A stretch of DNA of 30,953 bases, taken from IMG/VR virus record IMGVR_UViG_3300045988_046576, positions 1 through 30,953 of that record; one strand, 5' to 3'. The notes beneath the pieces are model-generated. The model searched no databases. It was not told the origin of the DNA and saw only the letters and a list, made by a program, of their open reading frames with translations. Shown here piece after piece: positions 1-30,953 of the stretch (position 1 is its first letter; each line of letters begins with the position of its first letter). The position numbers and the translations under genes are program-made. Source of the stretch: a virus.

Positions 1-332
1 CTACAGATGGAGGTGACGGCACCTTAGGTATTGTATTCACTCAGGAAAGAAAAGATAAGATTAGAGCCAAATGTGTTGGGAGACATCCATCAGAAGAAAC
101 TCGAAAAAAGATGAGTAATAGTCATAAAGGTAAAGATTTGAGTTATTTAAATAATTCTTTTGGCAATAATCCTAGAGCTAAAAAAGTAGGTGCATATAAA
201 GACGATGTTCTTATTAAAGAATATGATTGTGCTGTTAGTGCTTCTTTAGATGTTGGAGTTCATAAAAATTCTATTTCTAAAGCAATTAGAGGAGGCTATA
301 AAGTAAAAGGATTTAAATGAAAATATATTTAA
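1..332 (+). CDS. GIY-YIG-type homing endonuclease, C-terminal part (5' end cut by window edge)
   Basis: The frame is open from the window start. It has NUMOD3-like repeats (FTQERKDKIRAK, HPSEETRKKMSNSHKGK) and an IENR1-like tail (KKVGAYKDDVLIKEYDCAVSASLDVGVHKNSISKAIRGGYKVKGFKWKYI). TGA at 318-320 is read as Trp and the true stop is TAA 330-332. Confidence 0.7.
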
Positions 333-346
333 AAATAGTATAGTTT

Positions 347-670
347 ATGGATACCAAAGCTAGTAAGCTCCTTCATAAGACGAAGAGGAAGGTAAAAAGC
401 GAAGAATATTTAAAGTACCAAAGATACATAAGATCGAAAGAATTTAAAGCTATTAGAGAGCTTGTATTGGCAAGAGACAACTATCACTGCCAAGTTTGTA
501 ATTGATGTTTAGAAGATGGAGGAAATCGGGTACTGTCAGTCCATCATAAGACGTATGCAAATTTATTTAAAGAAGGCGGGCATTTGGAAGACTTAATAAC
601 ATTATGTTCTGTTTGCCATAAAGCTATACATTCATCTGTTAGTAACTATCAACGATTTAAGATAAAATAA
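347..670 (+). CDS. small HNH endonuclease (107 aa)
   Basis: ATG 347, TAA 668-670. Motifs are HCQVCNWC...SVHHKTY...LCSVCHKAIH (CxxC / HH / CxxCH zinc-HNH pattern). One in-frame TGA (503-505) gives the W in CNWC. Confidence 0.7.
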
Positions 671-673
671 AGT

Positions 674-704
674 AAGGGAGCCTTTTGAGCTCCCTTTTCT
701 TTTT
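674..704. terminator. bidirectional rho-independent terminator between convergent genes
   Basis: An 8-bp stem AAGGGAGC (674-681) / GCTCCCTT (689-696) with a 7-nt loop is followed by TTCTTTTT. It lies between the + strand HNH gene and the first minus-strand ORF. Confidence 0.6.
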
Positions 705-813
705 AATAGATAATCTTACCAGTTTGCAAATCTATAACTGCATTTAAATCTTTAGGTATCACATACACATAATAGACACCATTTATACATACTTTATAAG
801 TTACATACTCCAT
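703..813 (-). CDS. hypothetical small protein (36 aa)
   Basis: Minus-strand ATG at 813-811, TAA at 705-703. Translation is MEYVTYKVCINGVYYVYVIPKDLNAVIDLQTGKIIY. It is tightly packed with the next ORFs and has no homology signal. Confidence 0.3.
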   Translation of the reverse strand: MEYVTYKVCINGVYYVYVIPKDLNAVIDLQTGKIIY

Positions 814-815
814 AA

Positions 816-986
816 TTAAATAGTTGTTGCGTTTGGAATTTCTTCATCTAAGTCTTCCCATTCTAATACTGGGCGTATTTCAACATCCTTTTTATACTCT
901 CTTGCAATGTTTTCAAGATAAACAATTCTGTACTCAAGTTTTTCGATTCTATCGAATAGTTCATTAATTCTTTCTTTATCAGTCAT
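816..986 (-). CDS. hypothetical small protein (56 aa)
   Basis: Minus strand, MTDKERINELFDRIEKLEYRIVYLENIAREYKKDVEIRPVLEWEDLDEEIPNATTI. It is coiled-coil-like, its Trp is TGG, and a 2-nt gap separates it from neighbours. Confidence 0.4.
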   Translation of the reverse strand: MTDKERINELFDRIEKLEYRIVYLENIAREYKKDVEIRPVLEWEDLDEEIPNATTI

Positions 987-988
987 AA

Positions 989-1156
989 TTAGTCATTTTT
1001 AGAATAAAATTTATAATCTCTTTGGCTTAAAATCTTTTTAATTGCAGCATCCATTTTGCTGCTTTCTTTTTTATGGTATTCCATCCATATATCCAGTTCT
1101 TTTAAGAAGAGGTCTGAATCCCTCAGAACCTCTTCTATCGTTTTCTTTGTTTCCAT
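989..1156 (-). CDS. hypothetical small protein (55 aa)
   Basis: Minus strand, METKKTIEEVLRDSDLFLKELDIWMEYHKKESSKMDAAIKKILSQRDYKFYSKND. Trp is TGG and the stop is TAA 991-989. Confidence 0.4.
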   Translation of the reverse strand: METKKTIEEVLRDSDLFLKELDIWMEYHKKESSKMDAAIKKILSQRDYKFYSKND

Positions 1157-1178
1157 ATGCAAATATAATAATTATATT

Positions 1179-2906
1179 TTAATTTTCCAAATTAAATACG
1201 AATTTTTTATTTAAAATTACATAACCTTCTACTTGTTTGCCTTCAATTCTTTTTTGGCACTTTTTAACGTCATAGTATTTGTCAATCTCAGTAGCTTTAG
1301 GAGCTGTAGTAATTCCTGCAACAGTATAAGCATCTTTTATATACTTCTTAATATCAGCATTAGAATACCACATTCCAAGGCTTAAATGCTCATTTAATTT
1401 CTTTGCAGCTTTGTTATCTGTAGATTTATTAGAAGCTTTGAGTAATTCATCTTTAATTGCGCTAATGCAATACTTTAAACTTGCCATTTTCTCAAATCCG
1501 AGCTTTGTAATAGCATCCATTAACCAAGGATATTTAATCTTAGCGTTATCTAAGATAGGAGTTGCAAATCTATACTTTACTTCCCATTCAGCTCTAATAT
1601 CTTTAATAAGCTCTTTAAATGGTTTGGTATCTGAATCAAAGTCAATCTTAATTGAATTATCCTCGCATTCTACAACCTTTTTAAAGCCATTCTTTAAATA
1701 CTCATTGTTAAGATTAGTTCTAATTGAATATAAACCTCTTGTAACCTTGAAGTTAAATATATCAACTTTAGCCATATTAGGATCAAACGTAAAGGTATAA
1801 TCGTCATTTACTTGAATATAAGTATCACTGGTAAACTCTTTAAGTTTCTTTCTTGCAACTTCTGGCATTGCATTATAAGCCTCAACTGCAATTTTAGTCT
1901 CTTCGATATTCTGGAGATTCTTCTTTCTAAAATCCTCATAAGATACCTCAGCGTATCTTGTTGCAGAATATAAGTGAGTAATCCAATTTAAATACTTACT
2001 ATTTCTAATTCTACCAGCAATCTGCTGAATTGAAGTTGAAATATCAAGTAATGTCTGAGCTTTCTGAGCATCCGAAACTACTACAATACGTCCATTTTCA
2101 TCATAAATATCAGAACCTTCAAATACTGTAGAAGTTAATAAGTTAATCTTTTTAGGTTCATCTAATACAGTAGAGTTCTTAATTGTAAGTTTAGTCTTGT
2201 TATTCTTTGAATAAATAACTCTTGTATTTGATTCATTTAATTTGGCCTTCTGAATAAGGTTCTTTATAAAGTCAACTGAGTTAACAAAGATATATATATT
2301 ACCTTCAACCTGATTGTTTAAAACTGCAGTTATAAGCTTAATAGTTGAAGCCTCAACATTCTTACATTTAACAGCCTGAACTTTAGTCTCTATAACATCA
2401 TCCCATTCTTGTTTTACTAATGGAAGATCTTTTAATTCATCAAGTACAAACTCTTCTTCAAGTGGAGTTGCAGTCATAAAAGTATACTCTTTAAAGAGCT
2501 TATAGTTATCAAGTACAGGTTTAATAGCATCCTTTCTAAAGCTATACTGATTAAAAAGAATATGATACTCATCTACTAATAAACTATAGTCTTTAGGATT
2601 AACTGCCGAAATAACTTTTGGTAAAGAGTTATAAGTAACAATGATTTTAGGGCAATTAACTCGTTTTACATAATCTTTAATCTCTGCAATCGTTACTCCA
2701 GCAAATACACCGAAGATCTCTTCTGTACGTCTTTCATTAGGATACTGTTGAATCTTGTTCTCAACTAAACTGGTAAAAGGAACACAAATAACATAAGGCT
2801 TGTTACATTCAATAGCCATAGAAGTTCCACCACAACCAACTTTTCCTTTGTCAAATAAGCAATTTACAGGTAATTCATCAATAATGTTATTTAAATACGT
2901 TTTCAT
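1179..2906 (-). CDS. superfamily-2 (DExH-type) helicase, 575 aa
   Basis: Intact ORF in the standard code. It has a P-loop-like GKVGCGGTS, motif II LLVDEYH, motif III MTAT and motif VI QIAGRIRN. All 5 Trp codons are TGG, with no in-frame TGA. Confidence 0.7.
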   Translation of the reverse strand: MKTYLNNIIDELPVNCLFDKGKVGCGGTSMAIECNKPYVICVPFTSLVENKIQQYPNERRTEEIFGVFAGVTIAEIKDYVKRVNCPKIIVTYNSLPKVISAVNPKDYSLLVDEYHILFNQYSFRKDAIKPVLDNYKLFKEYTFMTATPLEEEFVLDELKDLPLVKQEWDDVIETKVQAVKCKNVEASTIKLITAVLNNQVEGNIYIFVNSVDFIKNLIQKAKLNESNTRVIYSKNNKTKLTIKNSTVLDEPKKINLLTSTVFEGSDIYDENGRIVVVSDAQKAQTLLDISTSIQQIAGRIRNSKYLNWITHLYSATRYAEVSYEDFRKKNLQNIEETKIAVEAYNAMPEVARKKLKEFTSDTYIQVNDDYTFTFDPNMAKVDIFNFKVTRGLYSIRTNLNNEYLKNGFKKVVECEDNSIKIDFDSDTKPFKELIKDIRAEWEVKYRFATPILDNAKIKYPWLMDAITKLGFEKMASLKYCISAIKDELLKASNKSTDNKAAKKLNEHLSLGMWYSNADIKKYIKDAYTVAGITTAPKATEIDKYYDVKKCQKRIEGKQVEGYVILNKKFVFNLEN

Positions 2907-2942
2907 AATTTAATAAATTTTAAAGGTTAATAATTTAAAGTT

Positions 2943-2985
2943 TTTTATTTTTCTTAATACAAAATGTGAGAAAAAAACTTGACAT
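2943..2985 (+). promoter_or_regulatory. conserved 43-nt bipartite motif, copy A
   Basis: TTTTATTTTTCTTA-N9-GTGAGAAAAAAACTTGACAT. It has the same 14+9+20 architecture as copies at 8285, 17820 and 25147. This copy lies between two minus-strand genes. Confidence 0.6.
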
Positions 2986-2988
2986 CAA

Positions 2989-3019
2989 CTGCCAAAAAGT
3001 GGCAGGACTTTCACCTGCC
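2989..3019 (-). terminator. overlapping hairpins, likely attenuating terminator after the 65-aa leftward gene
   Basis: The hairpins are CTGCCA(2989-2994)/TGGCAG(3000-3005) and GGCAGG(3001-3006)/CCTGCC(3014-3019). They share GGCAG, so they are mutually exclusive. On the minus strand the second hairpin is followed by ACTTTTTGG. Confidence 0.4.
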
Positions 3020-3028
3020 TGGAAGTAG

Positions 3029-3226
3029 TTAAAAAGAAATATTAAAAAATCCAAAAAATGAAGATTTTGATTTCTTAGCTTTCTCAGCCTCTTCATTTTC
3101 TTTAATTTCATCTAAGGCTTCTTCGCATAGAGTTTGAGCCTTTTCAAGAGCTCCTTCTTCAGTAACTTTACCGTTTACTATATCAAGGAAATATTCTAAC
3201 GCTTCAATTTGTTTTTCAGTATTCAT
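3029..3226 (-). CDS. small acidic early protein (65 aa)
   Basis: ORF track entry. It has 15 D/E versus 8 K (net about -7) and a hydrophobic C-terminus SSFFGFFNISF. It is the first gene downstream of two tandem host-type promoters. Confidence 0.55.
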   Translation of the reverse strand: MNTEKQIEALEYFLDIVNGKVTEEGALEKAQTLCEEALDEIKENEEAEKAKKSKSSFFGFFNISF

Positions 3227-3250
3227 AGTTATATGGTTTTATTGTTAATT

Positions 3251-3311
3251 TTGATAGTACAAATATACAACATATTTTTTCAATTTCCAAATTTTTGAGC
3301 AACTTTTTTCA
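3251..3311. repeat. 61-nt direct repeat, copy 1 (promoter cassette)
   Basis: TTGATAGTACAAA...AATTTCCAAATTTTTG...AACTTTTTTCA aligns without gaps to 3349-3409 (period 98 bp), with identical blocks of 13, 16 and 11 nt. Confidence 0.85.
3260..3291 (-). promoter_or_regulatory. Bacteroidota-type promoter P1 (leftward)
   Basis: The minus strand reads TTTG (3291-3288) - 20 nt - TATATTTG (3267-3260). This matches the Bacteroides/Flavobacterium consensus -33 TTTG / -7 TAnnTTTG with 19-21 nt spacing. It lies about 33 nt upstream of the ATG at 3226. Confidence 0.65.
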
Positions 3312-3348
3312 AAAATTTTTCATAGTGTTTAACTATCTATCTCTTATC

Positions 3349-3409
3349 TTGATAGTACAAAGATAATACATAAAAACTAAATTTCCAAATTTTTGGATAA
3401 CTTTTTTCA
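3349..3409. repeat. 61-nt direct repeat, copy 2 (promoter cassette)
   Basis: See copy 1. The conserved blocks coincide with the -33 and -7 promoter elements on the minus strand. Confidence 0.85.
3358..3389 (-). promoter_or_regulatory. Bacteroidota-type promoter P2 (leftward, tandem duplicate)
   Basis: The minus strand reads TTTG (3389-3386) - 20 nt - TATCTTTG (3365-3358), inside repeat copy 2. Confidence 0.6.
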
Positions 3410-3441
3410 GTGAAAAAAATTTAAAAAAAATATGCTAAAAA

Positions 3442-3473
3442 TTTGCATATTAAATATAAAATACTTATATTTG
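3442..3473 (+). promoter_or_regulatory. Bacteroidota-type promoter (rightward)
   Basis: TTTG (3442-3445) - 20 nt - TATATTTG (3466-3473), 45 nt upstream of the ATG at 3519. Confidence 0.6.
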
Positions 3474-3518
3474 CAGTACAATAATAAAATAAGTATTAAC
3501 CTATTAAATATTAAAATT

Positions 3519-3734
3519 ATGAAAAAAGTAAATAAAATATTAACTGGATTATTAGTAATCTCTATGTTTTTCGCTGGTTTTAGACTTTATAACGAGTACC
3601 ATAATGTACAGAAAGAAAGATTAGCTAAAATCGAAAATGCCTATTATAAATGCCAAGATTATCTTTGGGAACATCCTGGTGAATTAGATAGACAACAAAT
3701 TGACTCATTGTATAACTATTATTTAAATGAATAA
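3519..3734 (+). CDS. small membrane-anchored protein (71 aa)
   Basis: Internal ATG of ORF 3432..3734. The sequence MKKVNKILTGLLVISMFFAGF gives a single N-terminal TM/signal-anchor. Trp is TGG. Confidence 0.55.
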   Translation: MKKVNKILTGLLVISMFFAGFRLYNEYHNVQKERLAKIENAYYKCQDYLWEHPGELDRQQIDSLYNYYLNE

Positions 3735-3736
3735 TT

Positions 3737-4171
3737 ATGAAAACAGATATTAGAAGTTTAGTATTTACAAAGTCCTTATTTAAGGATTTATATGGAATAG
3801 ACATAGAATGATCTAAAAACGACTATTCCAGATATGATGGTACATTTAAATGGAATAATGTAGATTATATCGTTGAAGTAAAAAGAAGAAGATTTAAATC
3901 AGATAAATATGATACTACTCTTATTAATAGAGATAAGTTTGATCTATTAGCAAGAAACAATTCAGTATTAGTTATTATATTTGATGATGGAGTTTATATA
4001 TTTAAGGATGTTAAGAAAGCATTCGTTAGAGACTCTTATAAATATGGAAGATCAGCTACAGATTTTGATGGAGAATATGGATACTCTTTAAAGACAGAGT
4101 TATCTTTAAATAAAGCTATTAAAATAGATGTAGATACAGAATTTAGTAATTATAAGCCAAATGAACAATAA
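3737..4171 (+). CDS. putative PD-(D/E)xK-fold nuclease (144 aa)
   Basis: ATG 3737, TAA 4169-4171. The motif ...RYDGTF...DYIVEVKRRRF fits D...(D/E)xK. One in-frame TGA (IEWSK) made the ORF invisible in the standard-code track. Confidence 0.4.
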
Positions 4172-4463
4172 TGACATTATTTTAAAATATTATGATTTCT
4201 GTATAGAATTAAAGACTAAATTTGGAATGAATGAGGATTGCTTTCAGATGGCATTATTAGACATACTGGAAACACCTCATTCTAAACTCCAAAGTCTTCA
4301 TAATAAGAATGAATTAAAATATTGAATTACCAGAGTATTTAAAAACTACTGGTTTTCTAAAAATAGTAGATATTACTATCAATATAAGAAATATTATGAG
4401 ATAGTTAAGGAACCTATTGAACAGCAAATTATCAATGAAGAAAACTATGCAGAAGAAGATTAA
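4161..4463 (+). CDS. sigma-70 region-2-like protein (ECF-like sigma N-terminal half, 100 aa)
   Basis: ...NEDCFQMALLDILE...NELKYWITRVFKNYWFSKNSRYY resembles sigma region 2.1-2.4 (D..Q...l....W...i..N...d..R pattern). There is one in-frame TGA (KYWIT). Stop is TAA 4461-4463. Confidence 0.45.
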
Positions 4464-4704
4464 CATAGACGATATTATGGCGGAATACGATTTAGACTTT
4501 AGTATATTTACAGAGATGAATGATAGATTAATTGAAGTATATCCAAAATGGACATCTCTAAATAAAGCCGATAAAACAGTTATGGTATTATATGCCGAAT
4601 ATCAAAGTTATAGAGAAGTTGGAAAGATACTTGGAATTAGTCATACAACCATAGCAAGGGTAATAGCTAACATTAGAAATAAAATATGTGGAAGGATATG
4701 TTAG
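4435..4704 (+). CDS. sigma-70 region-4-like HTH protein (89 aa)
   Basis: LNKADKTVMVLYAEYQSYREVGKILGISHTTIARVIANIRNKI is a classic region-4 / LuxR-type HTH. The frame differs from 4161..4463 and overlaps it by 29 nt. The start is chosen at ATG 4435 (the track uses TTG 4417). Confidence 0.55.
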   Translation: MKKTMQKKINIDDIMAEYDLDFSIFTEMNDRLIEVYPKWTSLNKADKTVMVLYAEYQSYREVGKILGISHTTIARVIANIRNKICGRIC

Positions 4705-5252
4705 AAGAATGGAAACAATACAAGGATTTTCCTTTTGAAGTAAGTACTCTTGGTAGAGTTAGAACTATGCAAAGGGTAGTCAAATATAAGGATGGCAGAG
4801 AATATAATTACTCAAGTAAGATTATAAAACAATACATTACTAGAGAATATAGTTATATTGTGATTTCACTGCATTCCAAAACATATAATTTTAGAGTGCA
4901 TAGATTAGTAGCTGAAACATTTATACCAAATCCAAATAATTTACCTCAAGTAAATCATATTGACGAAAATAAGTTAAACAATAGAGTTGAAAATCTGGAG
5001 TGGTGTACTGCTAAGTATAATTTAAATTATGGCACTCATACTAAGAAAGTTGTTGAAAAATTAACAAATGGCCCACTTGCTAAAAAAGTAGCTCAGTATG
5101 ACTTAGATGGCAACCTAATTAAAGTATGAGATTCTATAAGAGAAATAAAAAGATGCTTGGGATATGATAATGGAACCATTTCCAAGTTTTGTAGGAACAA
5201 AGTAAATTGTAAACATTGTTATGGGTTTATTTGGAAGTATTCTAATAATTAA
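4686..5252 (+). CDS. HNH homing endonuclease (188 aa)
   Basis: It has a NUMOD4-like N-terminus (FEVSTLGRVRT), an HNH_3-like [37 protein letters not shown], and an IENR1-like tail ending GFIWKYSNN. The TGA at 5127-5129 is read through and the stop is TAA 5250-5252. Confidence 0.8.
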
Positions 5253-5895: not shown

Positions 5896-6256
5896 ATACT
5901 TATATGCTGCAAAGCTATTTAATAAAGGATGATCCCGAAATAAAGTAAGCGAAGAATTACAAGCTAAATATAATGTTAGTCAATCAACAGCTGCTCGATA
6001 TATTGGTGAAGCCTATAAAATAATTGCAGATAAGAATGACAATCTTATTAAGAATCTACGTCATATACAATTAACAAGATTGGAGACATTATTAGATATG
6101 GCACTCGCTAAAGGTGATATTAGATCTGCAAATGAGGTTATTAAAACTATAAATTCAATGTTCGGATTAAATACACCTGAAATACAAGTTAATATACAAA
6201 ATAACGAATGCCAGTTTAAATTTGGAGATCCTATTTTAAATGACAAAGATATATAA
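5816..6256 (+). CDS. terS: terminase small subunit-like HTH protein (146 aa)
   Basis: MEQLPKKVGRPKKEE... (AT-hook-like) is followed by an HTH (VSEELQAKYNVSQSTAARYIGEAY) and a helical C-terminus. It lies immediately upstream of, and overlaps, terL. One in-frame TGA (KGWSR). Confidence 0.55.
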
Positions 6257-7487
6257 AGGATACAATCCATTCGTTTATCAGTTTAAAGTACATACTGCTA
6301 TGAACGAATCGTACAGATCAGGTAAAGTATATACAATTAAAGCTAAACGACAAGTTGGTAAATCTTTACTTGCCGAAAATGAACTTTTAAGATTTGCAAT
6401 AAATTATCCAGGTACAGTTAATTGCATAGTTGAACCTACTTTAGGCCAATCTAGAAAGGTATTTAAGGAAATAGTTAATGCAACAATAGATTCTGACATT
6501 ATAAAGAGAAAGAATGAAACTCTTTTGGAATTAGAGTTTACTAATAATAGTTCGATACTCTTTAGATCTGGTGAACAGATGGATTCTTTACGAGGATTCT
6601 CAGTAAGTGGATTACTTGTATTAGATGAGGCTGCTTATTTAAAAGATGAAGTATTTGAGATTATAAAGCCTACTACAGACGTATGATCTGCTCCAATCTT
6701 AATAATCAGCACACCTAGATTTAGAGAGGGATTCTTTTATGAATGCTTTATAAAAGGACAAGATCCAAAATATGAAAAGTTTTATAAGTCATTCGATTGA
6801 GCATTAGAAGATACATCTATGCTGCTTGATAAAGAGAAGCTAGAAATGTATCGATTAACTACTTCCAAAAATAAATTTAAGACTGAATATCTTGGAGAAT
6901 TTGCAGACGATGATGGATGTCTATTTAATAACATATCAGAATGTATATTAAGTGAAAAACCTTCATATACAAACCTTTATATAGGAGTAGACTGAGCAAC
7001 TGGAAGCGGTAAAGACTATACTTGCATTACTGCTTTAAATGAAAAAGGCCAAATGGTATTTATTAAATATTTTAACGACAAAACTCCAACGGAACAGGTT
7101 GATATACTGACATCTATACTCTCTGAATATCAAGATGTTATAAAGACAGTACAAGTTGAACAGAATTCAATTGGTAGTGTTTTTTATGATATTCTCATTA
7201 AGAAGAATCCTAAAATACATATAGTTAAGTTTTTAACTACTAATTCTTCTAAAGCTAACCTTGTTAATAAGCTACAAGCTGCATTAGAGAATGGTAAAAT
7301 TGGATTATTAAAAGATGATAAACTTTTAAATGAGTTGAGGCTATATGAAGCTAGTTATAATCCGAGAACTGGAAATGTAACATATAACGCACCATCTGGA
7401 TTTAATGACGATACAGTGATTAGTCTTATGTTGGCATACGACTCTTTAAATAACACTAAAGGTAAATATAACTTAAAATTTAAATAA
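6240..7487 (+). CDS. terL: terminase large subunit (415 aa)
   Basis: Track ORFs 6240..6686 and 7053..7487 are in the same frame and are joined by reading 3 TGAs as Trp. It has Walker A KAKRQVGKS, Walker B LLVLDEAA, and nuclease motifs IGVDWATG and GFNDD. Confidence 0.85.
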
Positions 7488-11044: not shown

Positions 11045-11046
11045 TT

Positions 11047-11526
11047 ATGGAAGTATATAAAGACATTAAAGGATATGAGGGACTTTACCAGATAAGTAAT
11101 ACTGGTAAAGTCTTCTCTATAAAAAACAATAAAGAACTGAAGAGTGGATATACTCCAGCTGGATATACAAAAGTTCAATTGTGAAAGAATAAGTCTGGCA
11201 AGTGATTCAATATTCATAGATTAGTTGCAGAAGCGTTTATTCCAAACGTAGAAAACTTACCACAAGTAAATCATATAAATGAGATAAAGGAGGATAATAG
11301 GGTTGATAATTTAGAATGATGTACAGCTCAATATAATGTTACTTATGGAAATAGATTAAATAATAATAAAAAACCTGTAATACAGGAAAGCTTAGATGGC
11401 ACTTTTATAAAGAGATGAAATTCAATTGCTGATACTAAAAAATATGGGTTTGTTCCCCAAAATATAGTACAGTGTTGTATTGGTAATATTTCACAACATA
11501 AAGGATATATTTGAAAATATGCGTAA
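11047..11526 (+). CDS. HNH homing endonuclease (159 aa)
   Basis: [24 protein letters not shown]... (NUMOD4-like) is followed by [37 protein letters not shown] and a tail ending GYIWKYA. All 5 Trp codons are TGA. It overlaps the next gene by 8 nt. Confidence 0.8.
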
Positions 11527-19049: not shown

Positions 19050-19052
19050 ACT

Positions 19053-19664: not shown

Positions 19665-19685
19665 TAATTTAAAACGTATACAATT

Positions 19686-20591: not shown

Positions 20592-20631
20592 TTTCAATAG
20601 AAATGTTTAACTTTAAATAGTAATTGAAATT

Positions 20632-21150: not shown

Positions 21151-21157
21151 TCAGATT

Positions 21158-21195
21158 AAGAGCGGGTAATTAATTTACTCGCTCTTATTTTGTTT
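21158..21195 (+). terminator. rho-independent terminator after the head genes
   Basis: A 12-bp stem AAGAGCGGGTAA (21158-21169) / TTACTCGCTCTT (21175-21186), with 1 G-U and a 5-nt loop, is followed by ATTTTGTTT. Confidence 0.75.
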
Positions 21196-21224
21196 ATAGA
21201 CATTAATAATAAAAATTATATAAT

Positions 21225-22540: not shown

Positions 22541-22777
22541 ATGAAAATTACAACAAATGATCAATTAAAGTTTAAGGTACTAGAAGCTGAGGAAGGGAAG
22601 ATTATTACTAATTATAAGGAATCTGATCCAATTGAAGAATATAGTGCTTCTACTATTATGTACTGTCCAAAAGATTTGGATATTAGTGCATATTATGAGA
22701 TAGATCTAAGTAAACATCAGCAATATGTTGATTTACAGACACAAAAGATTGAAGAGAAATTAAAACTTGAAGAATAA
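22541..22777 (+). CDS. hypothetical protein (78 aa)
   Basis: ORF track entry. A TAATG overlap couples it to the tail fibre gene. Confidence 0.45.
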   Translation: MKITTNDQLKFKVLEAEEGKIITNYKESDPIEEYSASTIMYCPKDLDISAYYEIDLSKHQQYVDLQTQKIEEKLKLEE

Positions 22778-24786
22778 TGGAAAATCTATTACCCTATTTA
22801 AATGTACTTGAGGCAGATACTATTACAAGGGATAATGTAACTAAAGCCTTAGTAATAGATAAAGATGATAATATAGCTCTTTTAAATGGAGAAGATTTAG
22901 GAACTAATAATTATCAAGATCTGCAAAATAAGCCAGAAATAAACGGAGTATCTTTAAATGGGAATCTTACTGCAAGTGAGTTAGGATTAGCATCTACTAG
23001 CGATATACCTACTAAAACTAGTCAATTGACTAATGATAGTGGGTATATTACTAGCTTAGATGGATATGCTACAGAAGAATGAGTAAATAGTCAAGGATTT
23101 GCTACTAATGAATCTGTTACTGAAGGTTTAGCTGGAAAACAAGATGAATTAGTTAAAGGTAATGGAATTAACATATCTGGAAATACTATATCTGCTGATT
23201 ATAGTTCAATAGATAATAAGCCATCTTTAAATGGTAAGACTTTAGAAGCCTCAACGAATATAGTTCCAGCAATACAGGTTCAAGCAATACCTACTAAATT
23301 GACTATTACTCCGTCTTTAGGTAATCAAACTGGACAAGCAGTTGAGCTTCCTGGATATGATACAAGTACTAATGCTTCTGGTATTTTAACATCTCAAGTA
23401 TTTGGTATTCTTAATGATAAGTATACTAAAGAAGAAATAGACAATATTAACAGTGCAATTAATACAGCTATTTCTAAAAAACAAGATAAATTAACAGCAG
23501 GAGCTAATATACGAATTGTAGATAACGTTATATCTGCATTTAATAATCATTTATTCTTACATTTAGATGAAAATGATACAGAACATCAGGCTTATGTATA
23601 TTCTTTTATTAAGTCTAATTTAGAGTTCTATTTATTTGCAGAGATTACTTATGAAGGCAAAGTAGTAGTTCTTCCTTTAGTTGCCATTGAAAACAACGAA
23701 TCGTTAGATTTAAAAGGAATGTATCTTAAAGATGATTCTACAATCGTTGAGGTATCTGCAGTTTTAGTAGCTAATGGTAACATAAGTGTAAATACTTCTG
23801 AAATATCAATATCTGGAGGTAGTGGTGGAACTGGAGATTATAACCAGTTGACAAATAAACCACAGATTAATTCAGTTGAATTGTCTGGAAATAAAACTCT
23901 TACTGATCTTGGTATTCAAGCTGCAGGTAATTATGCAACTACTTCTGATTTGGCATTAAAAGCAGATAAAAGTACAGTTGATATATTACAAGAGCAAGTA
24001 ACTAATAATACCTCTGCAATTTCTACTAAACAAGATAAGTTAGTTTCTGGAACTAATATAAAAACTATTAATGGACAAACTGTATTAGGATCTGGAAATA
24101 TTGAAGTTGGTGGAGGAGGAACTAGTGACTATACACAATTAACTAATAAACCCCAAATCAACTCAGTAGAATTAACTGGAAATAAGAGTTTATCAGATAT
24201 TGGTGCACAGCCAGCTGGAGATTATGCTTTAAAGAGTGAACTACCTGATGTTAGTGGACTTGCAACTAAAGAAGAGGTTACAACTGGATTAAATGGTAAA
24301 CAAGACACTTTAGTAAGTGGAACTAATATAAAGACAATAAATAGTCAATCTTTAGTTGGATCTGGAAACATTGATACACAAGATATACCAACTCTTTACG
24401 TCAGTAGATACAAGAATGTTTCAGATACTGTTGGATTTGATAAGGTACAGAATGCAATTCTTACTAATAAATCATTCTTAATATACTTTGATTTGGAAGA
24501 GGGTAATATTACTATGTTATGTGATTCTGCACTTACTTTTTCTGGAGGAACTACAATTACTACTGTATTCCATAGAGAGTATAGTCAGAATCCTACAGAT
24601 CATAAGGTGTATACTGTAACTATTACTAAAAATGAACTTCCAGATGTAACTGAATTGGTTCATAACTATATTAATTATGGAACAGGTACTCAGCCTCAAA
24701 TCTATACAATAACTGTGTTAACACAGGAAGAGTATAATGCTCTACCAACAAAAGATTCTAATACTCAATATTTAATAGTTGAATAA
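22777..24786 (+). CDS. tail fibre protein with modular repeats (669 aa)
   Basis: Track ORFs 22777..23082 and 23299..24786 are in one frame, joined by a single TGA (EEWVNS). Repeated units are Y.QL.NKPQINSVEL.GNK.L.D.G (4 copies) and KQDKL.SGTNIKTING...GSGNI (4 copies). Confidence 0.75.
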
Positions 24787-25288: not shown

Positions 25289-25681
25289 ATGTATTACACT
25301 CTATTAATTCAGAATACTGTGAGTAAAGAAGTATATACATATAATTTGGAGAATTTAAATTATGACGAAAATATTTATTATAAGTTTAATATTGTGCTGG
25401 ATGATAATACACCTGACGGAGAATACCAATATTTGTTATTTGAGAATCCAAATCAAATTGAAGTTGTAGTAAACTATAACAACGTCTATGATAGCAAGTT
25501 ATATGGAGATACTAAAATATTAGTAACGTTTACTAATACACTTACTAATGGAACTCAGATATTAATTGCTGGTAAGCCTATTATGTGACTATCTAGTGGA
25601 TTAATAAGAATAGGAGACTATAAATCTAACAATTATCAATATAACAAACAAAACAAATACCAAGTATATGACAGAAAATAA
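25289..25681 (+). CDS. hypothetical protein (130 aa)
   Basis: The start is moved to ATG 25289 (MYYTLLIQ...). The TGA at 25586-25588 is read through to TAA 25679-25681. Confidence 0.45.
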
Positions 25682-26351
25682 GAAAAGTTTGAAGTCAGGT
25701 ACGATTAAAAGAAATTATACTGGAGTAATATATTTAATTCACTCTAAGATAACAGGAAAAATGTATATAGGGCAGACTTGCAGATCATTTAATACGAGAT
25801 GAAGGCAACACTGTAATGAGAGCTTTAATGAAAATTCAAAAAGTTATAATCATCATTTTCATAAAGCTATAAGGTTATATGGAACAGATAATTGAGATTA
25901 TAAAATACTTAAAATATTTTCCTGCTCTTCAAAAGAATTACTAAAGAAACAGTTAAATATTTCTGAAGTTGAATATATAACTTTATATGATACATTTAAA
26001 AATGGATATAATTCGACTTTAGGAGGGGAGGGAACTATAGGAAAAGATCCCTGAAATAAGGGTAAAAAAGGAGTGCAACAATGCAATGAAGAGACTCGAA
26101 AAAAGATGAGTGCATCTAGATCTGGAGAAAAGAATGGTATGTATGGAAGACACCGAACCGAAGAAGAGAAGGAAAATCTACGGAAAAGGTGAAGTAAACC
26201 CGTAAACCAATTAGATTTAGACGGTAACTTTATTAAGAGATGAAATTCTTGTAAAGAAGCACAACAAAGTGGTTATAAAAATATTTATAGTGTACTTTAT
26301 GGAAAAAATAAACAATGTAAAGGGTTTAAATGAGAATGGGCCCAAAAATAA
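25668..26351 (+). CDS. GIY-YIG homing endonuclease (227 aa)
   Basis: GVIYLIHSKITGKMYIGQT...RWRQH...YGTDNWDYKIL...NGYNSTLGGEG, with NUMOD3-like NEETRKKMSASRSGEKNGMYGRHRTEEEKENLRKRW and an IENR1-like tail GFKWEWAQK. Six of 7 Trp codons are TGA. Confidence 0.85.
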
Positions 26352-26358
26352 AATAAAG

Positions 26359-27396
26359 ATGTCGGCACTAGATCCATATATTGTAAGTAACATAGTAGAG
26401 CCTACAGAAAGTAAGAAAAGAGGATCAGATATGATAATATGAGGCGATAATAATCGCTATCCTATTTACTTATGGGATCTATATTTAAACTGTGCAACAT
26501 TACAGTCAATTATCAACGGAACTGCCGATTTTATCGTTGGAGACGATGTTATTTGTAATAAAGAGGGATTTAACGTAGTTGTTAATAAGAAAGGCGAAAC
26601 AATAGTAGACATCTTTAGAAAGATAGCAATAGATAAGATGATTTTTGGAGGATATGCTGTTCAAGTAATTAGAAATATGGTTGGAGAAGTTAGTGAGATT
26701 TATCACTTAGACTTTATGAAGGTCCGTTCTAATGAAAAGAATACTGTTCTTTATTATGCAGATGATTGGGAGGCTTGGTCAGTTAAGGCTTTAACTTATC
26801 CTAAATATGAGATAAATGATAGTGCTCCCGCTTCTGTAGTTTATAATAAAGGCTATGTAACAAGAAGTGTATATCCAATTCCAGTTTATGGAGCTGCTCT
26901 ATTAAGTTGCGAAACTGAGAAGTGCATTAATCAATTCCATTTAAATAATCTTAATAATGGATTTATGAGTAATGTTATTATTAACTTTAATAATGGAACT
27001 CCTACAGATGAAGCACAAGAAGAGATTGAACGTAATATTAACGAGAAGTTCTCTGGATACCAAAATACTGGACGTATTCTTATTTCTTATAATGATTCAG
27101 ATGTAAATAAGACTACTGTTGAAAGACTTGATTCTGATGATTTTGATGAACGATATGAATCATTAGCAACTAGAACAAGAGAGCAAATATTCTGCGCTTT
27201 TAGAGCTAATCCTGTGTTGTTCGGTATTAATTATGCTTCTGGATTCTCAAAACAAGAGTATCAGCAAGCATTTGATTTATATAATCGAACTATGGTGCAG
27301 CCAATACAAAAAGATATTTGTAAAAGTTTCGATACTATCTTTGGAATGAAAAATTCTGTTACAGTGGTACCTTTTAGTATGAATTGAAATGAATAA
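26359..27396 (+). CDS. portal protein (345 aa)
   Basis: ...IIWGDNNRYPIYLWDLYLNCATLQSIINGTADFIVGDDV... and downstream blocks resemble the Phage_portal family by eye. It has 2 in-frame TGAs. Stop is TAA 27394-27396. Confidence 0.6.
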
Positions 27397-27982
27397 TTAT
27401 ACTGTTTATTGCCATATTAATAAATATAATAATAAAATTTATATAGGTATTACTGGACAAGATCCTAAAAAACGTTGAGGAAATGGGAAAGGTTATAAAA
27501 ATTCCTTTTTCTTTAATGCAATACAAAAATATGGCTGAGATAATTTCGAGCATAAAATCCTGTATACTAATTTATCTAAATTAGATGCAGAGCTTATAGA
27601 AATAGATTTAATACATTATTATAAATCTATTAATAAAAGCTATAATATTGCTAATGGAGGTAATGTTACTACAGGATTGAAGATGTCAGAAAAAGCGAGA
27701 AAAAACATATCACAAGGGCATATAGGACTTAAAAGAAGTGATTCGTTTAAAGAGAAGATAAGAGTTGCTAATAAAAATCGTTCTGATGAAATAAAAAGAA
27801 AACTGATAGATAGCAATAAACGTCCTATAATTCAGCTATCATTAGATGGAGTCTTTATAAAAGAATATGAGAGTATTAAAGATGCAGAGTTACAATTAGG
27901 TATATGCCATCAAAATATATCTAAATGTTGTAAAAACATCTATAAAACTGCTGGAGGATATAAATGACAGTATAAACAGTAA
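27389..27982 (+). CDS. GIY-YIG homing endonuclease (197 aa)
   Basis: YTVYCHINKYNNKIYIGITGQDPKKRWGNGKGYK...AIQKYGWDNFEHKIL...YNIANGG, with an IENR1-like tail ending GGYKWQYKQ. All 3 Trp codons are TGA. It overlaps the portal stop by 8 nt. Confidence 0.85.
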
Positions 27983-27993
27983 AATTATTTATT

Positions 27994-28647
27994 ATGGAAT
28001 ATAGAAACGTATTACTTATATCGGAAGATTACATTAAGTCAGAAAGCAATTTAGATAACAACATTTCTGGCAAATATCTTCAAAGTGCTATTAAACTAGC
28101 ACAAGACATAGAACTGCAGTCTTTAATTGGAACTAAGCTATTAGAGGCATTACAAAAGAAATGTATTGACTGAGTAGATCCAAGTGTTGAAGATGCAGTT
28201 GCAGATTCAATAGATGATCCAGATAATATTAAGTATAAAGAACTATTAGATTACTATGTTACTCCATTCTTGTTATTTCAAGTATTGTCAGAAGTAATCG
28301 TTCCTATTACTTATAAGCTAAGTAATTTTGGAGTTATGAGAACTGATGATGAGAAAGATATAGCTGCAGATGCAAGTCAAGTTAATCTATTACGTAAATA
28401 TTACAAAGATAAAGCAGATTTCTTTAAAGCAAGATTACAAGATTGGGTTATTACATATTATAATGATTTTCCTGAATTATATTCATATAAACCATTAAAA
28501 GATATGTATCCTAATTTATATAGCGCAAGTAGCTGCGGTATTTGGTTAGGTGGTGCTAGAGGTAAGGGATTTTATACTAATCCAAATATAGGACCTTTAC
28601 AGAGAGCTTATGATTTCCCAAGTTCAAATAACAATAAAAAGAAATAG
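27994..28647 (+). CDS. putative head-tail connector / head completion protein (217 aa)
   Basis: MEYRNVLLISEDYIKSESNLDNNISGKYLQSAIKLAQDIELQSLIGTKLLEAL... resembles gp6-like connector N-termini by eye. One TGA (IDWVD). Confidence 0.35.
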
Positions 28648-28648
28648 T

Positions 28649-29074
28649 ATGACATATTATGAAATAATCAATGGGCTAAAAGAATCTGCTCTTATGGAGC
28701 CTAATATTAATTTCGCTGGCAGTAAAGATATCTATGAGTTAAATAGCCTTCCTAATATAGATTATAATGTATTCTATATAACTCCAAATACATTTAATCT
28801 TGATGAAGATACTATTACATACTCATTGAATCTTTACTATGTTGCCAGATGAGATGAAACAGACGAGAATCAACTTGAAGAACAGTCTGCTGGAATTTTA
28901 GCTCTTACAAATATAATTAACCGATTTAATAACATCTATCCTGATGTTCAATTATCTTACCCTTTAATATTTACTCCATTTTATCAAAAGTTCAAAGATA
29001 TATGTACTGGAATATTTGTAAGAGTAGATATAATGGTAGATAATGTATTAGGAGTTTGTACAGAGACTATGTAA
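28649..29074 (+). CDS. hypothetical virion-module protein (141 aa)
   Basis: The start is moved to ATG 28649 (MTYYEIING...). The TGA at 28850-28852 is read through, and TAA 29072-29074 overlaps the next ATG (TAATG). Confidence 0.45.
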
Positions 29075-29730
29075 TGGAAAACAAATTAAAATGATTCGGA
29101 CAGGTACTTGATTGAGTTAATAAATACGGGTTATGACAGATTATAAAAGGCGGATTTGCATTTATATTTGTATCTTATGTCTTTATAATCTCTCTAAATC
29201 CAGGCATTATATATGATAAGGTTGCTACTTACATAGAAAATGTCCATAACGTTAAGCAAGTAACCAGACAAGATGCAGACATCAAAATACGTTACATCTT
29301 GAAAGATTTAAGAGTATCTACAAATGCAGATAGAGCTTGAGTTATTGAATACCATAATGGTACATCTGGATTAGGAGGACTTCCATTTACATACGGAATT
29401 ATGAATAACGAAGAATTAGAAGAAGGAGTGTGTTCAGTATCTAGACATTATAGAGACTTCTTGTTATCTGAGTATTTGTTTATTTTGGAGACTTCTAAAC
29501 AAGGTGGATGAATAGGTAGTGTTGAGGATATAAAACAGTATGATACAAAAATGTACTATTCGTTTAAATCTAATGGTATTAATAAATTAGCTTTATTTTA
29601 TTTAAAATCGGAAGATAGAGATATTGGAGTAGTCGGCCTTTCATATTGTGATAATGAGATGCCAGAAGATACTTGAGTTAAATTAAGAGATGCAGGAATA
29701 AAGATAAGCATAATTTTAAATAAAAAGTAA
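29074..29730 (+). CDS. N-terminally membrane-anchored protein, possible sensor (GAF-like) domain; lysis-cassette associated (218 aa)
   Basis: This gene is completely invisible in the standard-code track. All six Trp codons are TGA. It has a TM segment GGFAFIFVSYVFIISL, and the soluble part ...ADRAWVIEYHNGTSGLGGLPF...DIGVVGLSY... is weakly GAF-like by eye. Confidence 0.5.
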
Positions 29731-29731
29731 T

Positions 29732-29893
29732 ATGAAGTATTGGGTAAAGTATTTAATCGCAGTTGTGATAATTATTGCAGTTTTGGTATTAGTAAAAGTA
29801 ATTCCTTTCTGGATTACTATGGTATTACTTGCTTTAGCAGTAGGTAGCCATTTATTTTACAGATATCTAACACTTAAAGATATTATAAAATAA
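29732..29893 (+). CDS. putative holin, two TM segments (53 aa)
   Basis: MKYWVKYLIAVVIIIAVLVLVKVIPFWITMVLLALAVGSHLFYRYLTLKDIIK. A TAATG overlap couples it to the endolysin gene. Confidence 0.5.
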   Translation: MKYWVKYLIAVVIIIAVLVLVKVIPFWITMVLLALAVGSHLFYRYLTLKDIIK

Positions 29894-30342
29894 TGAAGTA
29901 TTTTACAGTAGAGGAGTTAACTGAATCATCTACAGCAATTAAGGAAAATATAGACAACACTCCAAGTAAGGAGATCACTGAACACCTAATTGAGTTAATA
30001 GAGGAACTCTTAGACCCTATTAGAGAAAAATGGGCAGAGTATTGTAATATTAATAAACTTGGAAATCCAGCAATAAGTGTAAGTTCAGGTTATAGATGCA
30101 AAGAGCTTAATAAAGCTGTAAATGGTTCAGTTACATCTGCACATATGACGGGTTATGCTGCAGACCTTCAAAATGTCTCTGGAAGTAGAGAAGAGTTTTA
30201 TCAATTCCTATTAAACTTTTTGAAGGATAGAAATTTCGATGAATGTTTTATAGAAAAAAGTCGTACATCTCAATGAGTGCATATTGCTTTATATAGTATT
30301 AAAGGACTACAACGAAGAAAAAAAGGTAATTTGTATGTATAG
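29893..30342 (+). CDS. endolysin, peptidase M15 (VanY / L-Ala-D-Glu peptidase-like), 149 aa
   Basis: It has SGYRCKELNKAV, SAHMTGYAAD and, after reading TGA 30274-30276 as Trp, WVHIA. These are the Zn-binding H/D/H motifs of M15 peptidases. Stop is TAG 30340-30342. Confidence 0.75.
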
Positions 30343-30953
30343 TATCTATGTTCATATAAATAAATTAAATCATAAAATGTATTTTGGGATCACCAAACAA
30401 AATCCAAAAAGACGTTTTAGAGACGGAGAAGGTTATAAAAGTTGTACAAAATTCTACAAAGCAATACAGAAATATGGCTGAGATAATTTCGAGCACATTA
30501 TAATCAAAACAGATATGCCAAAAGAATGTGCAGAGACTTTAGAGAAGATATTAATCTATAAATATGACACCATAAATTCTGGATATAATTTAGATGGCGG
30601 AGGTAATTTACATTTAGCAACTAAAGAAAGTAAAATAAAAAGCTCAGAATCACACAAAGGAAAGAAACTATCACAAAGTACTAAAGATAAACTACGTATT
30701 TCTACTACAGAATTGTGAAAAGACCCTATTTATAGATCTAAATGCCAATCTAAGAAAGGCCGAAACGTTCCTCCAGTAAGTGAAAATACTAAAGAGAAAA
30801 TAAGTGATTCAATTAAAAAACTATGACTTAATGATGAATATGTAAATAAGTGTAAGAAAGGTCTAGAAACATATCATAAAATGCATAGTAAACCAATACG
30901 GGCAATTAATGAAGATGTGGTTTTGGAGTTCGATTCTGTATCTGAAGCTGTAC
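30335..30953 (+). CDS. GIY-YIG homing endonuclease, N-terminal part (3' end cut by window edge)
   Basis: MYSIYVHINKLNHKMYFGITKQNPKRRFRDGEGYK...AIQKYGWDNFEH...SGYNLDGGG, then NUMOD3-like repeats and the start of an IENR1-like motif. Three Trp codons so far, all TGA. Confidence 0.8.

Follow-up and report, generated by a model that had tools for sequence, protein, structure and literature searches.

Reassignment of TGA to tryptophan in gut phages is not new, and a suppressor tRNA (Sup-TCA) is detectable in only 15–35% of the published cases: 35% of the code-4 phages of Borges et al. (2021/2022; bioRxiv 10.1101/2021.08.26.457843) and 15% of those of Cook et al. (2024; PMC11210395). The phage described here resembles these code-4 phages in its low GC content, human gut source, in-frame TGA codons aligned to Trp, predicted host (Bacteroidota or Firmicutes), early gene free of the recoded stop and close relative that uses the standard code and ends few genes in TGA, as well as in the Sup-TCA tRNA being mostly undetected. 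Agate and Jade, the well-characterized code-4 cases, are 127–200 kb in size with tRNAs, RF1 or TrpRS, whereas the present genome is 31 kb, complete and tRNA-free; the named small clades are Garnet, Amethyst and Topaz. Its major capsid protein (MCP) and holin avoid TGA, in contrast to the enrichment in structural and lysis genes that has been published.

Three other groups invite comparison. The opal-recoded zeta crAss-like phages (PMC12386605) likewise read TGA as Trp in terL and structural genes, have predicted Bacteroidales hosts and include several listed without a TCA suppressor, but they are unrelated in sequence, about six times larger and carry 18–28 other tRNAs together with tRNA-metabolism genes; the shared part is just a ∼75 nt tail-fibre repeat, held in common with a related large family. 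The phages of Mycoplasma and Spiroplasma also use TGA for Trp without a suppressor tRNA. Their hosts, however, are wall-less and lack RF2, whereas the present phage has a peptidoglycan hydrolase and a holin, Bacteroidota-type promoters and no Shine–Dalgarno (SD) sequences, with TGA avoided in the genes that it expresses most. The TAG-recoded Garnet-type Prevotella prophages of Borges et al., exemplified by L139, are similarly small and of Bacteroidota context, and L139 has a homologous helicase-like early gene (45% identity), again without the recoded stop, in a standard-code host flank; no other gene shared with L139 was detectable. Their recoded stop is instead TAG (to Gln) and they integrate (SAM_5 integrase, tRNA-Thr site).

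The window, the whole stretch of 30 953 nt that was analysed (GC content 30%), is a complete circular genome, because a GIY-YIG gene spans its two ends: the ORF beginning at 30335 continues in frame via 30953 into positions 1–332 and encodes an intact 316-residue protein. Collinearity across this junction is seen in two relatives (L024 and L039), and the contig sizes of relatives group at 30–32 kb. The genome is that of a non-integrating tailed phage of human gut source, with the following features.

1–30953: complete circular genome; 40 gene models, 56 in-frame TGA
703–3226 (−): leftward operon, almost wholly TGA-free
703–861, 816–986 and 989–1162 (−): small ORFs of the leftward operon
1160–1191 (−): fourth Bacteroidota-type promoter motif, directly downstream of the helicase-like gene
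1179–2906 (−): 575-residue SF2-helicase-like early gene; Walker-A-like GCGGTS, DEYH and TATP; 0 TGA, 5 TGG
3029–3226 (−): 65-residue acidic protein of the leftward operon
3260–3291 and 3358–3389 (−): two tandem Bacteroidota-type promoters in duplicated units, leftward early operon
3442–3473 (+): Bacteroidota-type promoter TTTG-N20-TAnnTTTG of the rightward genes, position kept in relatives
3737–4171 (+): gene 2 of the rightward operon, 144-residue protein of unknown function; TGA at codon 25 (3809–3811)
4161–4704 (+): ECF-sigma-like pair; region-2-like ORF 4161–4463 (1 TGA) and region-4/HTH ORF 4435–4704
6240–7487 (+): large terminase (terL); PHROG_2 at residues 4–407, Pfam Terminase_6N/6C
8858–17745 (+): tail module
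8858–11044 (+): 728-residue tail-module protein; 5 TGA
11047–11526 (+): HNH_3 endonuclease in the tail module; 5 TGA, 0 TGG
11519–14971 (+): 1150-residue tail-module protein; 3 TGA
14974–17745 (+): tape measure protein; 3 TGA
17942–18475 (+): GIY-YIG homing endonuclease 1 (GIY1; Pfam GIY-YIG)
347–670, 4686–5252 (HEG1), 11047–11526, 25668–26351, 27389–27982 and 30335–30953 plus 1–332: other homing endonucleases (Pfam GIY-YIG/NUMOD/HNH_3)
18468–22526 (+): TGA-free head module; S78 protease, scaffold-like protein, MCP, 172-residue protein, 433-residue BspA-type LRR protein
19686–20591 (+): MCP, TGA-free
22777–24786 (+): tail fibre with Phage_tail_C tip; 1 TGA
26359–27396 (+): portal protein (Pfam Phage_portal); 2 TGA
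29074–29730 (+): 218-residue membrane-anchored protein; all six Trp codons are TGA
29732–30342 (+): lysis cassette; holin-like 53-residue protein (TGA-free) and M15 endolysin

Code 11 places 62% of the genome within ORFs of at least 100 residues and code 4, in which TGA is open, 90%, the comparison of tables that the first-pass annotation had proposed; opening TAG in place of TGA gives just 66%, and stop-to-stop cover under code 4 is 93%. The 40 gene models contain 56 in-frame TGA (about 58 by the earlier hand count) and 70 TGG codons and end in TAA (35) or TAG (five), in agreement with the earlier claim, made for some 45 genes, that none needs a TGA stop. Inside the final models there is no in-frame TAA or TAG, and their remaining two frames are stop-rich (TAA 397 and 802, TAG 328 and 198). 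The Trp content of the proteome is 1.26% with TGA counted as Trp and 0.72% from TGG alone. As had been noted, terL, the 728- and 1150-residue genes and the tape measure gene are each a single frame broken by TGA only. The reported paralogous motifs were found exactly in place, KYGWDNFEH with TGG at 18092 and TGA at 27536 and 30479, and NLEWCT with TGG at 5001 and TGA at 11317. The claim that reading TGA as Trp restores conserved motifs also held: the Peptidase_M15_3 match (residues 2–131) crosses the TGA at 30274, codon 128 and two codons ahead of the third zinc ligand His130, to the end of the profile, and the PHROG match of terL spans all three of its TGAs.

The identity of the inserted residue was examined across ∼65 related contigs, and its assignment to tryptophan is strongly supported. 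Opposite the TGA sites of the window, relatives show TGA 439 times, TGG 268 times, TAT 34 times and TGT and GGA 13 times each, all 13 GGA falling at a single variable position. Where the window has TGG, the relatives show TGA 186 times, and both codons are present at 64 of 145 Trp sites across the family; in terL, the TGAs at 6684, 6798 and 6993 are TGG in 25, one and 30 relatives, respectively. Glycine (code 25), which would imply a host among the Absconditabacteria or Gracilibacteria, is brought to mind by the low GC content of these bacteria, their occurrence in humans and the density of in-frame TGA in their phages. It was nevertheless rejected, being already refuted by this codon census, in which TGA and TGG exchange at orthologous sites. 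In standard-code relatives G occupies two of the 127 positions aligned with TGA and W, Y or F 69 (Y 39, W 22, F 8), and the Pfam GIY-YIG score is 30.7 with W compared with 23.8 with G. The W translation also scores higher for HNH_3, M15_3 and Terminase_6C, the generic AAA_22 model being the sole one to favour G. We thus regard glycine as having a negligible chance of being correct; TGA encodes tryptophan in this phage, as the first-pass annotation had proposed.

That annotation described TGA as a Trp codon throughout the phage. The meaning holds across the genome, but the usage is uneven: 18 of the 40 genes lack TGA, and for some the absence is non-random. Across relatives the MCP has no TGA in 136 Trp codons, the holin none in 47 and the helicase-like gene two, with 88 TGG; the TGA/TGG counts of the 172-residue head protein and the scaffold are 1/101 and 0/22. 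TGA avoidance is gene-specific, and in the early helicase-like gene and the genes for the capsid and holin it is family-wide. Published recoded phages have their strongest recoding in lysis genes, which the TGA-free holin does not match. In four homing endonucleases TGA makes up 0.8–1.0 of the Trp codons, compared with less in HEG1 (0.19) and GIY1 (0.50). The head module has a GC content above that of the rest of the genome, and the NNC fraction of the MCP is 0.46 compared with ∼0.2 elsewhere; the MCP is codon-optimized and the helicase-like gene is not, and both avoid TGA. Relative to TGG, there is no avoidance of the RF2-favoured T after TGA (p = 0.28), and no clustering of TGA near gene starts was found, so that in most genes UGA resembles a sense codon under no constraint. 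Where a gene has five or six TGAs, a high efficiency per codon is needed. These points, like the TGA-free holin, count against the explanation preferred below.

The host is probably a member of the Bacteroidota, as promoters, SD absence and portal and prophage relatives suggest, and most likely one that uses the standard code. The Bacteroidota context was an earlier proposal that several independent, indirect lines now bear out. All four TTTG-N17–23-TAnnTTTG sites in the genome lie at operon boundaries and are conserved in relatives, which favours the promoters that had been proposed (TTTG-N20-TAnnTTTG), but the composite motif has only these four copies; sigma-70 sites are not enriched in the genome. 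The reported lack of SD sequences is upheld, with the SD core at two of 40 genes compared with four expected by chance, and the reported BACON-like domain does give a match, but at 16.8 bits, below the Pfam threshold of 25. The closest cultured portal relatives are phages of Nonlabens and Bacteroides, and the GTDB matches of the capsid protein are to Bacteroidota MAGs only. The motifs of the helicase-like gene were read from its translation, its match to Helicase_C_2 being weak. Bacteroidales-type prophages, some standard-code and some TAG-recoded, contain homologues at 45–50% identity, which adjoin integrases (Arm-DNA-bind_5/SAM_5) and host genes whose domains are of BACON, DPP-IV, OmpA-like and CfxA type. 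On the contig of the TAG-recoded prophage, the genes on either side read intact in the standard code, and one of them ends in TGA. A syntenic sister phage (L070/L149) reads the standard code, with no in-frame TGA and two genes that end in TGA. A search for a prophage junction or a CRISPR match to a host found none.

The genome contains no tRNA according to ARAGORN, including 80% thresholds and the mitochondrial mode for anticodon UCA, or to Rfam covariance models at E ≤ 10, in keeping with the earlier failure to see a tRNA-Trp(UCA) or any other tRNA; none was found among ∼75 related loci. Genes for release factors are also absent from the full circle, as are those for aminoacyl-tRNA synthetases, for which the first-pass annotation had advised a search elsewhere on the genome. 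The first-pass annotation was correct to leave the means of decoding open, and more firmly so than it could know, since with the entire circular genome in the window no suppressor tRNA can be hidden elsewhere on the contig. Whatever decodes UGA must therefore be provided in trans. A noncanonical phage suppressor RNA overlooked by standard tools would accord with the proposal of Borges et al. that undetected tRNAs are one reason for a suppressor being visible in only 35% of the code-4 phages. It is nonetheless very improbable here, as ∼90% of the genome lies under code-4 ORFs (93% stop to stop), the few ARAGORN calls at lowered thresholds or in mitochondrial mode fall inside genes and lack the anticodon UCA, and neither the Rfam models nor the related loci reveal a tRNA.

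Two further explanations are each unlikely, to a similar degree. The host itself might use code 4 (UGA as Trp, no RF2), the phage sharing its code as those of Mycoplasma and Spiroplasma do; this would suit a complete genome with no tRNA or other code-switch machinery, TGA in early, middle and late genes, the like 3′ contexts of TGA and TGG and their free exchange as synonyms, and GenBank code-4 phages mostly infect code-4 Mollicutes (Cook et al.; PMC11210395). The M15 endolysin and holin, however, point to a peptidoglycan-walled host rather than a wall-less Mollicute, and the promoters, SD absence and portal and prophage relatives point to Bacteroidota. We know of no code-4 lineage in that phylum. 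In hosts with tRNA-Trp(UCA), such as Mycoplasma, UGA is the preferred Trp codon; here, the codon-optimized, top-expressed MCP never uses it (0/136), the early helicase-like gene avoids it as well and the sister phage retains it as a stop. Alternatively, tRNA-Trp(UCA) might be borrowed from another element in the cell, for example a persistent TGA-recoded crAss-like phage or prophage. A heavily TGA-recoded Crassvirales-like family of ∼168 kb is co-assembled with the phage in one public contig and shares the tail-fibre repeat (24030–24104) at 81–85% identity, zeta crAss-like phages of Bacteroidales that carry a Sup-TCA tRNA have been described, and a limiting borrowed tRNA would also fit TGA avoidance in highly expressed genes. 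Yet this short repeat belongs to a fibre type that is common, the contig that joins the two phages is probably chimeric through misassembly, the 21 kb pieces of the large phages that were examined contain no tRNA and obligate co-infection would be a heavy constraint for a family found in dozens of independent contigs.

The best overall explanation, to which we assign a probability of roughly 55%, is that UGA is an ordinary Trp codon, with termination at UAA and UAG only, decoded in trans in a standard-code Bacteroidota host. A code switch in such a host is favoured by the avoidance of TGA in the helicase-like gene (2/90) and the MCP (0/136), by the standard code of the sister phage and by the TAG-recoded prophage relative on a standard-code contig. 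As to the means, we tentatively suggest, as the likeliest mechanism though at somewhat less than even odds, that early TGA-free phage products neutralize host RF2 and that host tRNA-Trp(CCA) would then decode UGA by wobble. RF2 would be dispensable for the phage, because RF1 reads all of its stops, and in E. coli with an RF2 blind to UGA the native tRNA-Trp(CCA) places Trp at this codon, where it accounts for ∼80% of the residues (PMC11903333). Reading of UGA would be slower than that of UGG, which would explain why TGA is avoided in the most expressed module (capsid) and the first-expressed operon (helicase-like gene), while mutation pressure towards AT would carry genes of low expression and homing endonucleases to TGA. 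Against this, the second rightward gene keeps TGA at codon 25 in 27 of 27 relatives, and only the leftward operon and a 71-residue protein could act before the switch. No candidate RF2 inhibitor was recognized among the phage genes, and the helicase-like protein, the largest early product without TGA, is probably a replication protein, since its gene also occurs in standard-code prophages. TGA-recoded gut phages have already been published, most of them without a detectable suppressor tRNA, and the present genome joins them.

The window has a GC content of 30% and carries almost all of its genes on the plus strand. Under the standard code (code 11), 62% of its length falls in open reading frames that have a start codon and at least 100 residues; the figure is 66% with TAG left open and 90% with TGA left open. 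The comparison of codes 4 and 11 suggested in the first-pass annotation, which read TGA as tryptophan (code 4), therefore gives the increase expected. The final model comprises 40 genes with 56 in-frame TGA and 70 TGG codons. These genes end in TAA (35) or TAG (5) and never in TGA, in line with the earlier statement that no gene needs TGA as a stop, and TAA and TAG are absent from the gene frames, against hundreds of each in the other two frames. With TGA as tryptophan the proteome has a normal tryptophan content of 1.26%, compared with 0.72% from TGG alone. The long genes singled out previously, including the 728-residue (8858-11044) and 1150-residue (11519-14971) genes, each occupy one frame broken by TGA only, and the coordinates given for paralogous TGA/TGG pairs are exact. 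Profile matches of terL, the M15 endolysin and the portal span or follow TGA codons, and public gene calls of near-identical contigs already have the code 4 gene lengths. Conserved genes are thus full-length once TGA is read through, as is characteristic of code 4 phages.

Codons were compared with those of ∼65 related contigs fetched from IMG/VR and ENA, counts over which do not represent independent events. At the TGA sites of the window the relatives have (as non-independent counts) TGA 439 times, TGG 268, TAT 34, TGT 13 and GGA 13, with all GGA cases at a single variable site; conversely, they have TGA at window TGG sites 186 times, again not independently. The 145 tryptophan sites of the family divide into 64 with both codons, 40 with TGA only and 41 with TGG only. 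Opposite TGA, distant standard-code relatives have Tyr (39), Trp (22), Phe (8), assorted hydrophobic residues and Gly (2), and the residue profile of standard-code relatives is the same opposite TGA as opposite TGG. In distant TerL structures a phenylalanine aligns with the tryptophan of GVDW, the remaining sites being ambiguous. The Pfam models GIY-YIG, HNH_3, M15_3 and Terminase_6C score higher with TGA as tryptophan than as glycine, and AAA_22, a generic model, is the only one to prefer glycine. Termination at the TGA of the M15 endolysin would inactivate the enzyme, because its last zinc-ligand histidine lies two codons further on, and translation as tryptophan restores the motif as originally proposed. 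The TGA/TGG exchange at orthologous sites, the aromatic residues of the homologues, the Pfam scores and the M15 position together establish that TGA is a tryptophan codon, as the first-pass annotation had it. Code 25, the code of Absconditabacteria/Gracilibacteria phages in which TGA specifies glycine, is ruled out by the codon census, the homologue residues and the Pfam scores.

The same annotation described this usage as holding throughout the phage, which needs a qualification: summed over relatives, the TGA share varies sharply from gene to gene.

Tryptophan codons by gene, summed over relatives (TGA/TGG counts, or share of tryptophan codons written as TGA)
1179-2906 (-), helicase-like gene, 575 residues: TGA/TGG 2/88
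19686-20591, major capsid protein: TGA/TGG 0/136
172-residue neighbour of the capsid gene: TGA/TGG 1/101
Scaffold-like protein: TGA/TGG 0/22
Within 29732-30342, holin-like protein: TGA/TGG 0/47
26359-27396, portal: share 0.13
6240-7487 (+), terL; tail proteins; 14974-17745 (+), tape measure; endolysin: share 0.3-0.5
29074-29730, 218-residue protein: share 0.69
Homing endonucleases, four of seven: share 0.8-1.0

The leftward early operon (703-3226, minus strand) is TGA-free, as are the capsid, scaffold and holin genes; TGA is in use in the tail, terminase and endolysin genes, and the second gene of the rightward operon has a conserved TGA. The capsid gene is the most codon-optimized, with an NNC fraction of 0.46 compared with ∼0.2 elsewhere, and the helicase-like gene is not optimized. 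Since both avoid TGA, two separate pressures seem to act against this codon, namely very high and very early expression. The base following TGA, taken as a sign of RF2 competition, does not differ from that following TGG in the family or in the window alone. Positions of TGA within genes are distributed as those of TGG, with none of the clustering at gene starts that would mark a 5′ translational gate. The gene-by-gene pattern places concrete constraints on any proposed decoding mechanism. The head module (18468-21150) has a GC content of 0.39-0.40 compared with 0.30 and is much more conserved than TerL, with family-wide identities of 88-97% for the capsid protein and 78-86% for TerL.

A GIY-YIG gene starting at 30335 crosses the window end, continues in frame into position 1 and stops at 332, which yields a complete homing endonuclease; relatives are collinear over this junction, one of them without the endonuclease, and many of their contigs are 30-32 kb long. 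ARAGORN finds no tRNA in the window, even at 80% thresholds, and none with a UCA anticodon in mitochondrial mode; Rfam covariance models find none at E ≤ 10, and tRNAs are absent from all ∼75 related loci scanned. The lack of a tRNA reported from the sequence alone, including the UCA tRNA to be sought with ARAGORN on the full contig, consequently holds with the window as the whole genome. Searches of Pfam, PHROGs, NCBIfam and the PDB, together with the Pfam marks on public gene calls, gave no release factor, no synthetase and no enzyme of tRNA modification, and the search for synthetase genes elsewhere on the genome also ends here, the whole circular genome having none. The phage thus encodes none of the code-switch machinery (Sup-TCA tRNA, RF1 and TrpRS), which most code 4 phages described so far also lack. 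In the majority of known TGA-recoded phages no suppressor tRNA is detected, and where genomes are incomplete or very large this can be attributed to missed genes. That excuse is removed here, because the genome is complete, small, ∼90% coding and tRNA-free and has a syntenic standard-code sister.

Seven homing-endonuclease genes are present in 31 kb, consisting of four GIY-YIG, two NUMOD4/HNH_3 and one HNH:
17942-18475
25668-26351
27389-27982
30335-30953 continuing into 1-332
4686-5252
11047-11526
347-670
One relative represents an endonuclease-free allele, without the stretch 30482-654. Between the HNH gene and the point where the leftward operon ends there is a perfect bidirectional hairpin terminator (674-696). 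The promoter of that operon lies inside two tandem duplicated units (3246-3389) with TACTATCAA at the end of each. An ECF-sigma-like factor takes the form of two ORFs that overlap in different frames, the first region-2-like (4161-4463) and the second region-4/HTH (4435-4704). This layout recurs in the standard-code sister (contig L149, 6565-6873 and 6866-7186) and could reflect either a programmed frameshift or a factor made of two subunits.

Several independent lines, all indirect and drawn from sequence, agree on Bacteroidota as the probable host phylum. The composite promoter TTTG-N17-23-TAnnTTTG occurs at four sites, three of them between the divergent operons (3226-3519) and the fourth just past the helicase-like gene, in a layout conserved in relatives. 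TAnnTTTG alone is only marginally enriched genome-wide (60 sites versus 46 ± 6), and the informative signal is the composite motif at operon boundaries; sigma-70-type promoter sites are not enriched in the window. A Shine-Dalgarno core precedes two of the 40 genes, which is below chance. The nearest cultured relatives of the portal are Nonlabens and Bacteroides phages, and the capsid protein matches two Bacteroidota MAGs and no others among GTDB species genomes. Homologues of the helicase-like protein, at 45-50% identity, lie in integrated elements; their neighbours are Arm-DNA-bind_5/SAM_5 integrases and host genes that encode BACON, DPP-IV, OmpA-like and class A beta-lactamase domains. Promoters, the lack of Shine-Dalgarno sequences and these relatives uphold the Bacteroidota context proposed earlier; the BACON domain cited as a host marker falls away, its match in the window being below threshold. 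The M15 peptidase and holin-like protein imply a walled host and hence argue against Mollicutes. A code 4 Mollicute phage matched to its host was rejected on these grounds and on the promoters, the absence of Shine-Dalgarno sequences and the Bacteroidota-infecting relatives. GenBank phages gave no match to the window by megablast or to the capsid protein by tblastn, and a PDB sequence search with the helicase-like protein returned nothing. In an ENA contig (L002, ERZ1311449 NODE_318) phage genes adjoin an apparent RNase R-like gene; a host junction was considered there and discarded, as the sequence from L002:1965 is 100% identical to the window tape-measure gene; the public 999-residue `RNB/RNase R' call in positions 1-3800 is an assembly chimera, with an RNB-domain N-terminus fused in frame to the tape-measure C-terminus at that point.

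All close relatives are TGA-recoded. A syntenic sister phage (contigs L070 and L149; IMGVR_UViG_3300029905_000019; 30 128 bp, GC 28%) shares 67% identity in the capsid protein and 49% in TerL. It has no in-frame TGA and ends only two genes with it, and is therefore nearly TGA-free with a standard code. The two phages differ in the early region, where the sister has no helicase-like gene. A 132 kb contig (L139; ENA ERZ28598220 scaffold_71) contains a TAG-recoded (code 15) prophage, with 13 in-frame TAGs in TerL, that adjoins a SAM_5 integrase and a tRNA-Thr(CGT). GC content is higher in the host contig, where the flanking genes read without interruption in the standard code and one ends in TGA. 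The helicase-like gene is the only one this more distant prophage has in common with the window. Long contigs with helicase-like homologues contained standard-code prophages and the one TAG-recoded prophage, and no TGA-recoded integrated relative. The coexistence of recoded and near-TGA-free relatives is consistent with the published path of low GC, stop-codon loss and capture as a sense codon (Borges et al., bioRxiv 10.1101/2021.08.26.457843).

The same study described phages of gut Bacteroidetes and Firmicutes that read TGA as Trp, with some clades of 22-34 kb; only 35% of its code 4 genomes have a TGA suppressor tRNA. Cook et al. report 15% with a suppressor tRNA and 46 code 4 vOTUs in a human gut virome catalogue (PMC11210395), and several opal-recoded zeta crAss-like genomes lack a TCA tRNA (PMC12386605). 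The recoding found here is thus a well resolved instance of a published phenomenon rather than a new one. The named small recoded clades are Garnet, Amethyst and Topaz, to which a phage is assigned by the position of its TerL in the tree of Borges et al. (bootstrap support of at least 95%); the 31 kb length and unidirectional GC skew fit the published description of Garnet and Amethyst. Code 4 phages described so far have most recoded stops in late genes for structure and lysis and keep the standard code in early genes. The window agrees with this in its TGA-free leftward operon and its recoded tail, terminase and endolysin genes, and departs from it in its TGA-free capsid, scaffold and holin genes and in the conserved TGA of the second rightward gene. 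Standard gene callers miss or misannotate recoded phages.

The genome bears on the means by which phages change the code of cells that use the standard one. A mechanism must fit a complete tRNA-free genome, stops that RF1 alone can read, insertion of tryptophan and the avoidance of TGA by the earliest and the most highly expressed genes. We favour, tentatively, a phage-imposed switch in a standard-code host that needs no tRNA from the phage: an early product would neutralize host RF2, and the host tRNA-Trp(CCA) would then read UGA by wobble and insert tryptophan. In a more specific version, with a probability of about 0.3, the early product would be a small protein of the TGA-free leftward operon. 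In E. coli with a UGA-blind RF2, ∼80% of the residues at UGA are tryptophan, inserted by the native tRNA (PMC11903333). No candidate RF2 inhibitor was found among the phage genes, and the helicase-like protein is unlikely to be one, since it is also present in standard-code prophages. A host that natively uses code 4 would fit the absence of machinery, but the host signals oppose it, as does the rarity of TGA in the most highly expressed genes, and we regard it as improbable. The Bacteroidota signals, the TGA stops of the sister phage and the early-gene avoidance bear on the host code only indirectly.

It is also rather unlikely that a suppressor tRNA is borrowed from a co-resident recoded phage. 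In its favour, a very heavily TGA-recoded Crassvirales-like family of up to ∼168 kb (L123-L135; e.g. IMGVR_UViG_3300029720_000001, 168 085 bp), in which one 1093-residue fibre gene has 24 TGA and 9 TGG codons, was co-assembled with the phage and has a short fibre repeat in common with it. A public 148 kb contig (L131; 3300045988_175865) joins the two phages in this ∼75-nucleotide repeat (window 24030-24104) and is probably an assembly chimera; it was rejected as a host contig with a prophage, as the extra DNA is the Crassvirales-like phage. Megablast of the large phage against GenBank gave no match. That a noncanonical RNA escaped detection is hardly credible. Loss of RF2 function combined with decoding by the host tRNA-Trp, if true, would explain why a suppressor tRNA is absent from so many TGA-recoded phages and why the inserted residue is always tryptophan, and would also shut off the host, whose own TGA stops would be read through.
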